From the NCBI RefSeq assembly GCF_001677475.2, contig NZ_CP015229.1: 64,000 nucleotides of DNA. One strand, written 5' to 3'. Source of the DNA: Escherichia coli (GTDB lineage: Bacteria; Pseudomonadota; Gammaproteobacteria; Enterobacterales; Enterobacteriaceae). The notes under the pieces were generated by a model. That model saw only the letters and a program-made list of their open reading frames with translations, did no database searches and had not been told where the DNA came from. Positions 1-5,174 of this stretch are shown here, in pieces; the first letter of the stretch is position 1, and the number at the start of each line of letters is the position of its first letter. The position numbers were made by a program, and so were the translations under genes.

Positions 1-3000
1 GCAAACAGCCGCTTCGTTTCACCATCAAGTGAAACGGTATTATCAGCCAACTGCATTGTCGGCTTAGCACCGGAACCGCCAAGGTCACTAATAACCTGCC
101 CGTCTATCTGCATACGACCGGTTGGTTGCTGCAAATCGTTGGCGGCAGTCGTCACCTGGGACGTGGAGGCTGGTTGAGGAGAATTATTTGAGCGCATTCC
201 CCGGGCATTAATGAGTTTGTCATACAGCCCATCAATCCCCATTTGTGCACCGAGTTGGTCAAAGTAACTTGAGTTGTTTGCTACCGGACGTGCCTCTTCA
301 ACTGGCATAGGTGTATCAACATACACATTGCCAGCTGCCGTTGCGGTTCCCCTTCCTCGTGCACGTTCTTCGAGGGTTCCCTGAACGACTTCCCGACGCA
401 TCCCCCGGCCATTCATGAATTTGTTGACCAGATCGTTAACGCCAACAGCATTGCCGATTTTGTCTACCAGACCGCCTTTCTCAAACGGGCTATCACCAGG
501 GGTAAACGCCAGGCCAGTAGACTGATCGATAACAGCGTTATCAGGCAGTGGTCCCCTCACTCCATATTGCGCCCCACCCTGTGCTCCTGCTCCAGGTGTA
601 TAGATTTCACCACCCAAATAGCGAGCACGATGAGTATTGACCTTGATCGCGTACTCACGGTTTTCTTTCGATAAGTCACCTGTGCCTTTTTTCCACTTAT
701 TGATAGTGCCAAACCCAGCGTTATATGCAGTGATGGCCTCGTTTAAGTCTCCATTGGCTTGCTTCAGATACTTGCTCATGAGAAGAGCCGCAGCTTCTGC
801 CGATTTCACAGGATCAAATGCATCCGGTTCCGATATCCCTGTCTCTTTACGAGCAATACTCGTGAACTGGAACATCCCGAGTGCGCCACCACTTAACTTT
901 CCATCTGGTGATCTTGTAAGCGGAGACTTTGCGTTAGGATCCCCTCCTGATTCAGTTGCAGCAATCGCGTAAAGAGTGCCTTCTGGAAGACCATATTTAT
1001 TCTCTAGTTCAGCAAAATATGGAGCCAACTTATCGAGATTTGCCTTACCTTCAGCGCCAAGACTTCCTACTTTTACATCCAAGTTGCCATTGTTGTAGGT
1101 ATCCGCAGCTTTCTGAATATCATTCCTGGTTCCAGTAGTATTACGCGACGATGATGACGAGCTATTTTGACCAATGGCTTTATCAATTTTCTGCAACGCG
1201 CGATTGCCCGTTTCTACGGCATTTGCATTGATAATCTGATTAGCAGTTTCTTTAACTGTTTTATTGCTATCTTTCGCCGTATCTAAGGATGCATTTACAA
1301 CACGAGTGACAATATTAGCCTTTTTAGGGGTATATTCAGTCTTAGGAGCATTGCCCTCCTGACGTTCTTTAGCAGGTGTTTTTAATTCAGGTGTAACCTC
1401 TTTCGCATCCGCTTTATTGACTAGCTTTGATGCAACCCAGGCCACAGGGGTGCTCTGAACAGCGGCATCAGCAACCTCACCTGAAAGCTCTTTTGCGGCA
1501 CTCCATAGATTACTGCCAGCCTCTTTAATGTATTTCCCCGGGTTCTTAATGAAATCAATTGCACTATCAATTGCATCACTGAAAACCTTTTTCAGGTTAT
1601 CGACAGTAAAGAAGTCTTTGATGGCGTCTAATTTTTCGTTCAGACTCTTGGTTGTGTCACTGAACCAAGCTGAAATAGCATCGCCAATCTTGGCTGTGTA
1701 ATCGTTGAATGTTGTGGATATGGTGTCACCAAGGTTAGAAATGTATGTTTCTAAATTGGTAATCCCACTATCAATGGCCTGTGCAATACTTTCCGTCGAA
1801 AATGATTGCAACATATTGCCGATATCCTCAAATCCAAGTGATTTGAGAACGCCACCAATGGCACTGCTAATACCAGATACCAGTCCTCCCATATCGAGAA
1901 CGTTAGCCAGTGTATAAGCCGCTTTTTGCTGAAAAGATGGATCTTCCCCATCCTTAAGCCCAAAGGTCCGACGTTGTGCTTCTGTATCATTCCAACCGGT
2001 TACCGCATCATAGATACCTCCAGCCACCGTGCCGACTAGCGGAATTGCGCGTAAAACCCCCTTTGCAAGTGCCTTAACACCTAGTTTCCCCAATCCCTTA
2101 GTTGCAAGTTTTCCGGCACCGCGAGTAGCCAATTCGCCAGCTTCTTTGGCAGCAGCTTTTTTCCCACCAAAGCCCAATAAGCTTGCAACTTTTTTTATAC
2201 CTAAAGCGCCTAGTGCCATCGAGCCAACTTTCTTTAGTGCCCCACGGCCAAAAATGAGGGAAGCAATACCACCGGCCCCCTTCCCTAACAGGCTAAATAA
2301 TTTGGACAGCAAGCCGCCCTTCTTTTTCCCGGTGTTTTTGGCTATCTGATCAAGGGCGCTGAGAATCTTGTCATTGCCCTCTTTAATTTCGCTGGTCTGA
2401 TCCTGAAGTTCCTGAACCGTCCGTTTTTGGGTGTTAACCTGAACGACATCGGCACTACTTTGCGATTTACGCCTAAAAAAACCTTTTTTACGGCTGTTAT
2501 CGTCATTGCCACGAATCACATCGGCAATAGACTTTCTGGCACCATTAAGCGATCCGCCAACTTCTTTTGATATCCCGCCAAGCTCCTTCCCTGCGGCCCA
2601 CAATGGACCAGCAACGGCATAACCTAACGCATCGACGGCACGAGTCTCTGAAGGGTTACCTATGCCTTCAGCTACTTTTGACAGTTTTTTTAATAAACCT
2701 GATTCAGCATTTAGACGCTCATCATCCTCTTTTCGCCTGGCCTTTTCTGCTCGTTCAGCATGGGCATCTTCCGCTGCGGCCTTACTCCCTGACTTTCCAA
2801 TAAAACGACCACGCGCATCGCGTTGGTTTTGGCTTTTTTGCGCACCGCCTTTTTGACCGAACATTTCGCGAGCGTGTTCGGCTGCTTCGGTCCGTTGCGC
2901 CTTTACATCCTCTGGTATAGCCTTCCTGCGTCGTTTTTTACCCTTTGGTGTGGTTGATTTGGCCCGCTGTTCCTGTTGAGCAACATCTTCCTGAACTACA

Positions 3001-3266
3001 CGAGAAACGTCCCCTAAATTAAGCCGTTTCATTGCGTCAACAATAGGGTCTACTGATGGCGCTTTGGCCACAAAGTCAGGCCGGGAATTTTCGATTGTGC
3101 GATTTAATGCCGACACGCTGCGAGAGACAGGATCAACAGTAGCAACTCGCCCACCTTTCAAATCTTCAACAGCTTCCCGGATACCAGCAAGCTCTTCCAG
3201 CTCTTTTGCGCTGGCGGTTTCAACTGTCCTTATAACATCGTCAATGTTGGCGTTTTTTCTTTCCAT
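1..3266 (-). CDS. Phage structural protein with lytic transglycosylase (SLT) domain, tape-measure or ejection-protein-like; partial, 3' end beyond window start
   Basis: One minus-strand frame is open from ATG at 3266-3264 to the window edge (absent from ORF track because no stop in window). My translation shows Gly/Lys/Ala-rich amphipathic repeats and SLT motifs (ATESGG, GMFQF, AYNAG) encoded around 640-1010. Confidence 0.6.
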   Translation of the reverse strand, partial: MERKNANIDDVIRTVETASAKELEELAGIREAVEDLKGGRVATVDPVSRSVSALNRTIENSRPDFVAKAPSVDPIVDAMKRLNLGDVSRVVQEDVAQQEQRAKSTTPKGKKRRRKAIPEDVKAQRTEAAEHAREMFGQKGGAQKSQNQRDARGRFIGKSGSKAAAEDAHAERAEKARRKEDDERLNAESGLLKKLSKVAEGIGNPSETRAVDALGYAVAGPLWAAGKELGGISKEVGGSLNGARKSIADVIRGNDDNSRKKGFFRRKSQSSADVVQVNTQKRTVQELQDQTSEIKEGNDKILSALDQIAKNTGKKKGGLLSKLFSLLGKGAGGIASLIFGRGALKKVGSMALGALGIKKVASLLGFGGKKAAAKEAGELATRGAGKLATKGLGKLGVKALAKGVLRAIPLVGTVAGGIYDAVTGWNDTEAQRRTFGLKDGEDPSFQQKAAYTLANVLDMGGLVSGISSAIGGVLKSLGFEDIGNMLQSFSTESIAQAIDSGITNLETYISNLGDTISTTFNDYTAKIGDAISAWFSDTTKSLNEKLDAIKDFFTVDNLKKVFSDAIDSAIDFIKNPGKYIKEAGSNLWSAAKELSGEVADAAVQSTPVAWVASKLVNKADAKEVTPELKTPAKERQEGNAPKTEYTPKKANIVTRVVNASLDTAKDSNKTVKETANQIINANAVETGNRALQKIDKAIGQNSSSSSSRNTTGTRNDIQKAADTYNNGNLDVKVGSLGAEGKANLDKLAPYFAELENKYGLPEGTLYAIAATESGGDPNAKSPLTRSPDGKLSGGALGMFQFTSIARKETGISEPDAFDPVKSAEAAALLMSKYLKQANGDLNEAITAYNAGFGTINKWKKGTGDLSKENREYAIKVNTHRARYLGGEIYTPGAGAQGGAQYGVRGPLPDNAVIDQSTGLAFTPGDSPFEKGGLVDKIGNAVGVNDLVNKFMNGRGMRREVVQGTLEERARGRGTATAAGNVYVDTPMPVEEARPVANNSSYFDQLGAQMGIDGLYDKLINARGMRSNNSPQPASTSQVTTAANDLQQPTGRMQIDGQVISDLGGSGAKPTMQLADNTVSLDGETKRLF

Positions 3267-3347
3267 GATCTTATCGCCTACCGTTTCGGTTTAAGTTTTT
3301 CTTCCAGTTTCTCCAACAGGAAAAACGCATAGGATTCAGTGAGCCTT

Positions 3348-4243: not shown

Positions 4244-4855
4244 TCAAAGAGAAAAGCTAAAGCCCAGAAGGGAAGCCAAAGAACTTGAGGATTGGTTAAA
4301 CGTGCTGTGCAATGCGAAGGTCATTGGGAATGACTTAAATTCAGTAACCTGATCTCGCGCATAGGTGACATCGCCGGTAGTGACCGGGAATACCGTCATC
4401 TCATTTTCCAGTTTGGTTAAACCGGAAGACAGTAACCGATAAATACGCACATTGAGCAAATATTTAGACGGTATATTCCCAGTACCGTCCGGATTAATCA
4501 CCCGACTTTTTGCCGTCTTAAACCAGTCCAAAACGAGGCCATCAACGGTATCCCTGACCATCATTGTTATCTGCCCAGGCGAACGCTCCGTTGGCTGAAG
4601 GATATTCCCTCCGCCGATTTTAATCGTTTCATATTCGATGCTGTAATCGTGGTAGGTAATGTCTTTGGCAAAGAAGTCTGCCCCCTCCAGTCCATCAACT
4701 TCGACAGAGAACTGCCATCCTTGCGCGAACAGCATTTTGTTCATGATGATTGACGTCAGCTTACCAACTTCCCGCTCACCAACGCCGGAGCCAAATAATG
4801 TCGTCGTTAATGCCGAAGATACATAAGACTTTACTGATGCAACATTAAGTCCCAT
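4244..4855 (-). CDS. Hypothetical phage structural protein (203 aa), possibly major tail/tube
   Basis: ORF track; 11-nt spacing to neighbours; position upstream of the SLT/tape-measure-like gene; family not recognised. Confidence 0.35.
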   Translation of the reverse strand: MGLNVASVKSYVSSALTTTLFGSGVGEREVGKLTSIIMNKMLFAQGWQFSVEVDGLEGADFFAKDITYHDYSIEYETIKIGGGNILQPTERSPGQITMMVRDTVDGLVLDWFKTAKSRVINPDGTGNIPSKYLLNVRIYRLLSSGLTKLENEMTVFPVTTGDVTYARDQVTEFKSFPMTFALHSTFNQSSSSLASLLGFSFSL

Positions 4856-4865
4856 ATCAACGACC

Positions 4866-5174
4866 TCACTTCAACATGGATGAGAAAAGAACAATACCCG
4901 GGATAATTGCCCTTGTTGCGCTCATTTTCTCTTCCAGATCCAGCTTCCGCTGATACAGCGTGTTCTCGTCGGATAAATTGCTGGCATCGAGTTTCCCCGC
5001 GATAGATATTCTTCGCAGGCGATCAGTGTTAGGTATCGCGATTAACACTTCCAGATAGTCAGAAAGTAACCCAATGATTTCAGGTGGCACTTCCCCATTA
5101 TCCAGATCCATATCACGTAAATTAGCCAGATATGACACATTCAGCGGGTATATATGACCAAGTAAATTATTCAA
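4866..5174 (-). CDS. Hypothetical protein (102 aa); 5' end runs into the putative prophage left end, true start may be internal
   Basis: ORF track; N-terminal codons overlap the region I assign to the Mu-type prophage terminus. Confidence 0.3.

Follow-up and report, generated by a model that had tools for sequence, protein, structure and literature searches.

We examined a 64,000-nucleotide stretch of Escherichia coli DNA (assembly GCF_001677475.2, contig NZ_CP015229.1), hereafter called the window, in which four co-directional minus-strand reading frames were called outside the left end of a Mu-like prophage. The segment to the left of the prophage occupies positions 1–5152, the prophage spans 5153–40204 (about 35 kb), and E. 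coli chromosomal DNA follows at 40205–64000. The segment 1–5152 was identified as phage P1-type DNA that contains, in minus-strand order, pmgC′ (the 3′ half only), tub, pmgB, and sit. These genes are known tail genes of the late tail operon of a P1-type (Punavirus) phage-plasmid. A preliminary description of the window had regarded them as a second phage-like structural module; the module is not an unknown one.

The nucleotide identity of 1–5152 to P1, P7, SJ46, phi456, and RCS47 was 94–97%, and the matching regions lie under genes annotated as Sit, PmgB, Tub, and PmgC. The segment also aligned to 509 plasmids, which were mostly non-mobilizable P1-like plasmids of Escherichia and Salmonella, and the best plasmid match was the IncY plasmid CP099272 (99.0%). 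The homology to P1 was colinear across pmgC-tub-pmgB-sit, with the same gene order. The preliminary description had proposed searching the four proteins against phage families; all four products matched P1-type families in a PHROG profile search, with E-values from 1.5e-48 down to 0.

The leftmost and largest gene, sit′ (1–3266, minus strand), encodes P1 Sit, the tail tape measure with a lytic transglycosylase (SLT) domain. Its frame is open from about 3290 to base 1, with an ATG at 3266, and 1088 of its 1142 codons lie within the window, the 3′ end being outside. The product matched phrog_2533 with 2169 bits, and the sit region was 94–99% identical to sit of P1, P7, SJ46, and P1-like plasmids. 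Exact-protein look-ups yielded draft contigs that match the window with 100% identity over both junctions of the prophage; one of them, L005, encodes the full-length Sit of 1142 amino acids carrying PF01464, and the window edge therefore removes the last 54 residues. The SLT domain occupies residues 750–869 (660–1019, minus strand; Pfam PF01464, E = 6.8e-25), and a Gly/Lys-rich hydrophobic repeat region read off the translation covers about residues 325–425 (1992–2294, minus strand). Both the size of Sit (about 1140 amino acids) and the SLT position near residues 750–900 are as described for P1. Thus, the gene calls, the PF01464 match, and the translation bear out the preliminary description of four co-directional minus-strand genes ending in a giant, incomplete SLT protein with Gly/Lys repeats.

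The gene pmgB (3348–4229, minus strand; 293 amino acids) matched phrog_1854 (E = 1e-154) and is annotated as PmgB in P1 and its relatives, and tub (4244–4855, minus strand; 203 amino acids), the P1 tail tube protein gene, matched phrog_1842 (E = 1e-106) and is annotated as Tub or TubB in the same phages. The fourth frame, pmgC′ (4866–5152, minus strand), comprises the 3′ 287 nucleotides of pmgC and matched the PmgC-like phrog_1851 (E = 1.5e-48). In P1, Sit is the tape measure whose SLT domain provides the wall-cutting activity by which peptidoglycan is cut at injection, Tub is the tail tube protein, PmgB is required for tails to form and has been proposed to be a tape-measure chaperone, and PmgC is a virion adaptor required for head-tail joining, the deletion of which abolishes infectious particles (PMC9024508). 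The operon of the window has the same genes, order, and strand as the P1/P7 (Punavirus) late operon of IncY P1-like phage-plasmids, with 94–99% nucleotide identity and the same SLT position in Sit. It differs from that operon in that pmgC is interrupted after about nucleotide 280 and in that the DNA is contiguous with the chromosome, not with the rest of a plasmid.

The P1 homology stops exactly at 5152, inside pmgC, where the alignment to intact P1-like DNA ends. Intact P1-like DNA reads ...CAGCGGGTATA/CCGCTCG (the slash marks the junction), and the corresponding stretch of the window is ...CAGCGGGTATA/TATGACCAAG. The sequence of the window from 5153 onward recurs in two independent insertions of related prophages in E. 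coli. Because these insertions share the sequence from 5153 and the P1 homology ends at 5152, position 5153 is the left end of a transposable prophage, here called X, which lies inside pmgC; the boundary is between 5152 and 5153 and not at 5132, as had been described. Intact pmgC is 567 nucleotides long in CP099272, and its 5′ 280 nucleotides are absent from the window. The PHROG match is accordingly restricted to profile positions 93–183 of 183, and no intact pmgC is present in the window. The 102-codon open reading frame (ORF) at 4866–5174 contains P1 DNA in 4866–5152 only and consists of the last 94 pmgC codons and a few codons of the prophage end. This ORF is not an intact gene, and its TTG start is spurious, lying inside the prophage end. 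Of the four genes first described, three are thus the P1 genes tub, pmgB, and sit (the latter cut by the window edge), and the fourth is only the 3′ half of pmgC. The suggestion that they belong to a different, phage-derived element cut by a Mu-type insertion was correct, as the P1 homology and the cut in pmgC indicate, but no displaced head genes lie upstream of the cut; what lies there is the 5′ half of pmgC, followed by the sim and immI genes.

The exact P1-Mu junction was found in none of 5426 complete RefSeq E. coli genomes, and an exact junction scan of GTDB representative genomes gave no match. Furthermore, none of the 72,556 PLSDB plasmids spanned the pmgC junction, and no catalogued P1-like plasmid had an X insertion. 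Mu-like prophages are rare on plasmids: matches to this prophage family among these plasmids were only three and weak, and none of the three carries X.

The prophage at 5153–40204 has two unlike ends, namely the left end and transposase of X and a true Mu-type right end. The left end (5153–5301, plus strand) starts with TATGACCAAG and contains three ATTCAAGATAA motifs at 5169, 5240, and 5291. In a motif scan, five matches were found versus 0.94 expected, three of which were in the left end; inverted copies of ATTCAAGATAA were not found at the right end of the prophage. The X-type early module (5401–9486) comprises a repressor gene (5401–5916, minus strand), a ner-like gene (6108–6359), the transposase gene A (6361–8457, 698 amino acids), and B (8533–9486, 317 amino acids), as read from gene calls and Pfam matches on the identical draft contig L005. 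The product of A was 92% identical to A of E. coli RM9088 and about 25% identical to the MuA-type A of UMNF18, and that of B was 100% identical to RM9088 B and 38% identical to the Mu-type B of UMNF18.

At the other end, com (39258–39443) and mom (39394–40089), both on the plus strand, were recognized by Pfam Zn_ribbon_Com and Mom on identical contigs, and this region was 88% identical to Mu com-mom. The true Mu-type right end (40128–40204, plus strand), which belongs to a second prophage type called Y, ends with ...CGCCGCTTCA, and the alignment of the window reaches the last base of phage Mu at 40204. A consensus scan detected three MuA-site-like repeats at 40128–40199 and no Mu-type sites at the left end of the prophage. 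The right end of the window prophage diverges from the X-type right end after 40132.

Complete prophages of the two types were available for comparison. The X-type prophage of E. coli RM9088, located between nrfA and nrfB, is colinear with the window to 40132 and then has three inverted TTATCTTGAA motifs, so that X-type motifs are present at both of its ends. The Mu-end-type prophage of UMNF18, which is inserted between treA and dhaM, starts with a Mu-type left end (TGTATTGATTCAC...), encodes a 662-amino-acid MuA-like transposase, and is flanked by a GGGAA duplication. Natural elements thus have matched end pairs, and the ends and the A and B products of the window prophage are mismatched; therefore, the window prophage has an X-type left part and a Mu-type (Y) right part. 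Matching transposase-binding repeats at both of its ends are absent. The element at 5153–40204 contains neither the MuA-type transposase nor the Mu-type left end of phage Mu sensu stricto. Compared with Mu, it has only the right end of Y, and its left end, repressor, ner, A, and B are of the X lineage.

The prophage has a tape measure gene of its own at 28161–30026, as the preliminary description stated; the product matched PF10145, and the gene is annotated as a tape measure in a homologous prophage. The G+C content of the prophage is mosaic, with 57–59% in the structural genes (14000–38000) and about 48–50% in the early region and in the com-mom and right-end region. Only the early region and the com-mom and right-end region (5153–13500 and 39200–40204) show nucleotide identity of 84–88% to Mu, D108, and SfMu.

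The right flank was chromosomal from its first base. The match begins at 40205 and is about 97% identical to the chromosomes of 5425 of the 5426 E. coli genomes. The bases 40205–40209 (GCGAT) are the right copy of a 5-bp target duplication of prophage Y, the empty site being GAACA/GCGAT/GACCCC. No P1 DNA was found to the right of the prophage, and the flanks are unlike, with ..GTATA (P1) on the left and GCGAT.. (chromosome) on the right, without a target duplication linking them. A simple insertion of one prophage in the window is ruled out by the chromosomal right flank, the lack of P1 DNA there, and the differing flanking bases. The Mu-chromosome junction, like the P1-Mu junction, was found in none of the 5426 complete genomes.

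We determined the organization of the parental element X from draft contigs of GCA_018683295.1. Contig L006 carries the junction of pmgC′ of P1 with the left end of X. Contig L031 carries com-mom and an X-type right end joined to P1 DNA, ...GCGCTTTA/TATACCGCTCG, the latter being the missing 5′ half of pmgC, and continues past ′pmgC into simC/B/A, c4-icd-ant, kilA, and repL; the P1 immunity and replication genes are not part of the window itself. The left junction is GGGTATA/TATGACC in the window, the right junction is GCGCTTTA/TATACCGCT in L031, and the native P1 sequence is GGGTATACCGCT. The P1 target bases TATA (5149–5152; left copy only in the window) are duplicated at both ends of X, so that in GCA_018683295.1 both ends are flanked by pmgC halves with TATA on both sides. 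Therefore, X is a simple insertion in a P1-like plasmid (P1::X), and nesting of a prophage within a P1-like plasmid prophage does occur in this lineage. The Mu-like transposable phage X inserted into pmgC after about nucleotide 280. A 110-amino-acid fusion ORF at the right junction of X was found in nine contigs from at least five samples.

The preliminary description had considered a prophage within a prophage. This holds for the lineage, as L006 and L031 indicate, but not for the window, in which the right side abuts the chromosome, the ends are mismatched, and no duplication links them. Moreover, the nesting is not that of one chromosomal prophage in another, as P1-like elements are plasmids.

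Members of the X-type family have TA...TA termini and three TTCAAGATAA repeats per end (window 5153–5301; L031 1180–1300; RM9088 contigs L004 and L025). The target duplication of the family appears to be 4 bp long, not 5 bp, namely TATA in P1, which was checked against the native sequence, and TAAG in RM9088, for which the native sequence was inferred. X therefore differs from Mu in its transposase (about 25% identical to the MuA type), its TA...TA ends, its TTCAAGATAA repeats, and its apparent 4-bp duplication. No isolated phage in the phage collection matched the X-type structural region above about 73% identity. Since PmgC is essential for infectious P1 particles, we infer that the P1::X element should persist only as a plasmid.

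A search for a 95-amino-acid N-terminal PmgC product, in which a 5-bp duplication was assumed, yielded only six metagenome contigs with intact P1 sequence ending there; the real product has 110 amino acids and the duplication 4 bp. These contigs (L017–L022; metagenome and Logan assemblies, six samples) have intact pmgC and all end within 1–3 nucleotides of the insertion point of X (...GGTATACC(C)). The exact-length query selected for such endings, and the breaks are unlike the fork geometry expected from an insertion.

One explanation for the P1 DNA in the window is a degraded remnant, in which deletions left a fragment in the chromosome beside a single prophage. In its favour, the window contains no more than 5.2 kb of P1 DNA, and E. 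coli FDAARGOS_943 has, in this chromosomal neighbourhood, a remnant of an X-type prophage next to a deletion. However, the P1 tail operon runs on into pmgA, bplA, gene 16, R, and S in the identical draft contig L005, the identical drafts extend the P1 DNA by another 10 kb past the window edge, and the other half of pmgC leads into sim, immI, kilA, and repL, which fits a whole plasmid. A degraded remnant is therefore very unlikely.

In E. coli FDAARGOS_943, the X-type remnant extends from the left end to about 7 kb, is cut by ISEc60, and lies between narI and ansP (contig L024). This genome is without the whole vgrG-Rhs-nhoA-yddE segment, a prophage- and insertion sequence (IS)-associated deletion in the chromosomal neighbourhood of the window. 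We also considered this prophage as a guide to the right end, for which an IS-truncated remnant was uninformative.

The parental element Y was found in the chromosome. Contig L056 reads pqqU-yncE-ansP-hyp′...GAACAGCGAT/TGTATTGATTCAC-c-ner-A-B, with a 662-amino-acid A and a 319-amino-acid B. It was found by predicting the fusion protein formed by a Mu-type left end following GCGAT, the real product of which has 66 amino acids. The right junction of Y is present in contig L015 from the same sample, and the left junction carries the 5-bp GCGAT duplication, as does the right junction. L056 showed no similarity to the window; therefore, the left module of Y is absent from the window. These results indicate that Y is a simple chromosomal insertion with true Mu-type ends and a MuA-like transposase. 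Y exactly fits the simple-insertion lysogeny of phage Mu (5-bp duplication, TG...CA ends, MuA sites L1–3 and R1–3), with a left end of the Mu type, 88% identity to Mu at the right end, the GCGAT duplication, and a 662-amino-acid MuA-like transposase. In isolates without the contig-break signature of X and Y together, which we took to carry Y alone, short-read contigs of 113–114 kb run through the prophage. Two other routes to the left end of Y were rejected. A 47-amino-acid chromosomal fusion that assumed an X-type left end gave no record, the assumption being wrong, and the Kil protein was too widespread (458 blocks), leading to unrelated genomes only.

Prophage Y interrupts a gene for a 176-amino-acid hypothetical protein 126 bp from the gene start, just upstream of a 118-amino-acid gene and vgrG (40205–40609; contig L002, 3875–4405). 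The interrupted product has an HEMMH motif and is possibly a metallopeptidase-type protein associated with the type VI secretion system (T6SS); a Pfam scan of it gave no match.

The two parental elements bear on a further explanation, a Mu-mediated fusion of replicons, in which replicative transposition from the chromosome into P1 would give a co-integrate with two identical prophage copies. Such an event would leave the newly targeted DNA (P1) beside one end and the original flank (chromosome) beside the other, with no shared duplication, as in the window. However, the two ends are of different element types, the encoded transposase fits the left end only, both parents exist apart with their own matched ends and duplications, and short-read contigs extend unforked for 5.3 kb from P1 DNA into the left end. 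Because a transpositional co-integrate needs one element with matched ends and the ends in the window belong to two separate elements, we excluded this event, which is extremely improbable.

The bodies of X and Y are nearly identical over roughly 25 kb. In comparison with the Y contigs (L043, L044, and L049), the window has dense differences at 9495–13482, including a non-homologous block at 12345–12988, is identical at 13483–21913, and past 21913 has few differing positions, sparse up to about 38 kb. In comparison with the right part of X (L031 and L026), the window differs at 39034, 39228, 40048, 40056, 40092, and 40096 and diverges completely after 40132. Given the dense differences from Y up to 13482 and the differences from X starting at 39034, the switch lies within 13483–39033 (plus strand), the interval in which the X and Y bodies are near-identical. 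The window thus joins P1 plasmid DNA to the chromosome by an exchange inside the shared X/Y body, and its 35-kb prophage is X on the left and Y on the right, exchanged within that body. We hold with high confidence, taken jointly, the gene identities, the cut in pmgC, the existence of X and Y with complete junction pairs, and the mismatch between the two ends of the window prophage.

One private substitution (21914) and about 10 single-base indels in a patch of 320 bp (23436–23755) set the window apart from every related X- or Y-type draft. The patch splits the Mu-like major head gene gpT (301 amino acids in the drafts) into ORFs 22766–23449 and 23452–23736, and represents either an unpolished or low-coverage stretch of the source assembly or private inactivating mutations. 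In the other stretches compared, and leaving aside 21914 and the allelic positions, the window and the drafts are essentially identical, with at most two single-base mismatches per flanking contig (L006 and L007). The draft contigs of isolates with both X and Y break at the boundaries of X/Y identity (10398/10461, 10399, 10769, and 40049–40053), which is the expected effect of two near-identical copies.

The exchange may have been made during assembly or in the cell. In the former case, a free P1::X plasmid and a chromosomal Y were present, and the assembler crossed between the copies inside the near-identical body. The two ends in the window belong to elements for which sister isolates have complete junction pairs, the repeat extends over about 25 kb and is near-identical, the drafts of X-plus-Y isolates break exactly at the identity boundaries, and the private indel cluster that breaks the major head gene is in no draft, all of which make an assembly switch somewhat probable. 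On the other hand, the window matches the drafts perfectly outside the indel patch and the assembly is generally good, a single clean switch is indistinguishable from real recombination, and the indel patch need not mark the join.

In the latter case, RecA-dependent recombination of the plasmid-borne X with the chromosomal Y would have integrated the whole P1-like plasmid, an event that we regard as possible at somewhat less than an even chance. The integrated plasmid would then lie between two reciprocal hybrid prophages, of which the window would show the right-hand one; this layout is likewise plausible without being probable. Two parental elements with their own complete junction pairs co-exist in the lineage (L006 and L031 for X; L056 and L015 for Y), and they share long identical stretches (13483–21913 and more), the long near-identical homology that a co-integrate requires. 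The body alleles appear to be shuffled between isolates, which fits ongoing exchange, and the window is otherwise base-perfect versus the Illumina drafts. Moreover, chromosomally integrated P1-like elements beside resident prophages have been reported, with no mechanism or cause given (Pfeifer & Rocha 2024, PMC10879196). However, the linkage is in no independent assembly, short-read drafts being incapable of showing it, neither junction occurs in the complete E. coli genomes, the integrated state is normally that of a minority of cells, and the private patch of about 10 indels in the shared body suggests weak sequence support.

In-cell homologous recombination and a crossing by the assembler give the same four end junctions; therefore, the drafts cannot decide between them. 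We lean slightly toward an assembly switch over a true co-integrate, and all other explanations together are very improbable. Three points weigh against the overall interpretation. The virion defect of P1::X rests on deletion data for P1 itself and not for this plasmid. The window contains just one of the two hybrid junction sets, the reciprocal product being outside the view. The body alleles vary among isolates (two allele sets of the 621-amino-acid tape measure and a 615-amino-acid type), because of which the exchange point is bounded only to 13483–39033 by single-nucleotide differences.

With respect to known systems, the window resembles the cases of Pfeifer and Rocha (PMC10879196) in that P1-like DNA is contiguous with the chromosome and adjoins a resident prophage. 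Unlike in those cases, a specific candidate route is visible here, in that the plasmid-borne and the chromosomal Mu-like prophages are homologous, the integration itself being putative. Plasmid pO165_PV06-71_1 (AP026747.1) likewise carries a transposable phage; it is unlike P1::X in being an IncFIA conjugative F-type plasmid with a prophage of only about 80% similarity. In AP026747.1 (L057), which is among the three weak plasmid matches, this different Mu-like prophage lies after trbF in the transfer region.

The chromosomal flank (40205–64000) comprises the truncated gene for the 176-amino-acid hypothetical protein, the 118-amino-acid gene, vgrG, a DcrB-like gene, and Rhs, followed by nhoA, yddE, and narV-W-Y-Z. 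A T6SS cargo island at 41184–49130 encodes VgrG (664 amino acids), the DcrB-like protein (150 amino acids), and Rhs (1571 amino acids) at 62% G+C. The Rhs gene is followed by a small ORF, possibly for immunity, and then by a SymE-type toxin gene, beyond which lies an ORF for an ISAs1-family transposase (about 49576–50712). The Rhs tip region varies between otherwise similar E. coli chromosomes.

The genes at 1–5152 are textbook P1 tail genes from which nothing new follows, and the P1::X plasmid is a new example of processes already known, not a new kind of system. A transposable phage on this phage-plasmid has knocked out an essential virion gene, which is one way in which a phage-plasmid can become a plain plasmid; P1::X was found in at least five independent samples and in none of the catalogued plasmids. 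The passenger prophage supplies about 25 kb of homology to the chromosome, which is a plausible route of integration and equally a trap for assemblers and for prophage and plasmid callers. The window also serves as a warning that a 35-kb "Mu-type prophage" whose gene content is normal can be a chimera with unmatched ends. The join in the window may be real, although we would not call this probable: a P1-like phage-plasmid, disabled as a phage by the insertion in pmgC, would then have been integrated by homologous recombination of its passenger with a near-identical chromosomal prophage. If so, this would be a concrete and reversible route by which phage-plasmids become chromosomal prophages beside resident prophages, a situation left unexplained in the earlier report (PMC10879196).

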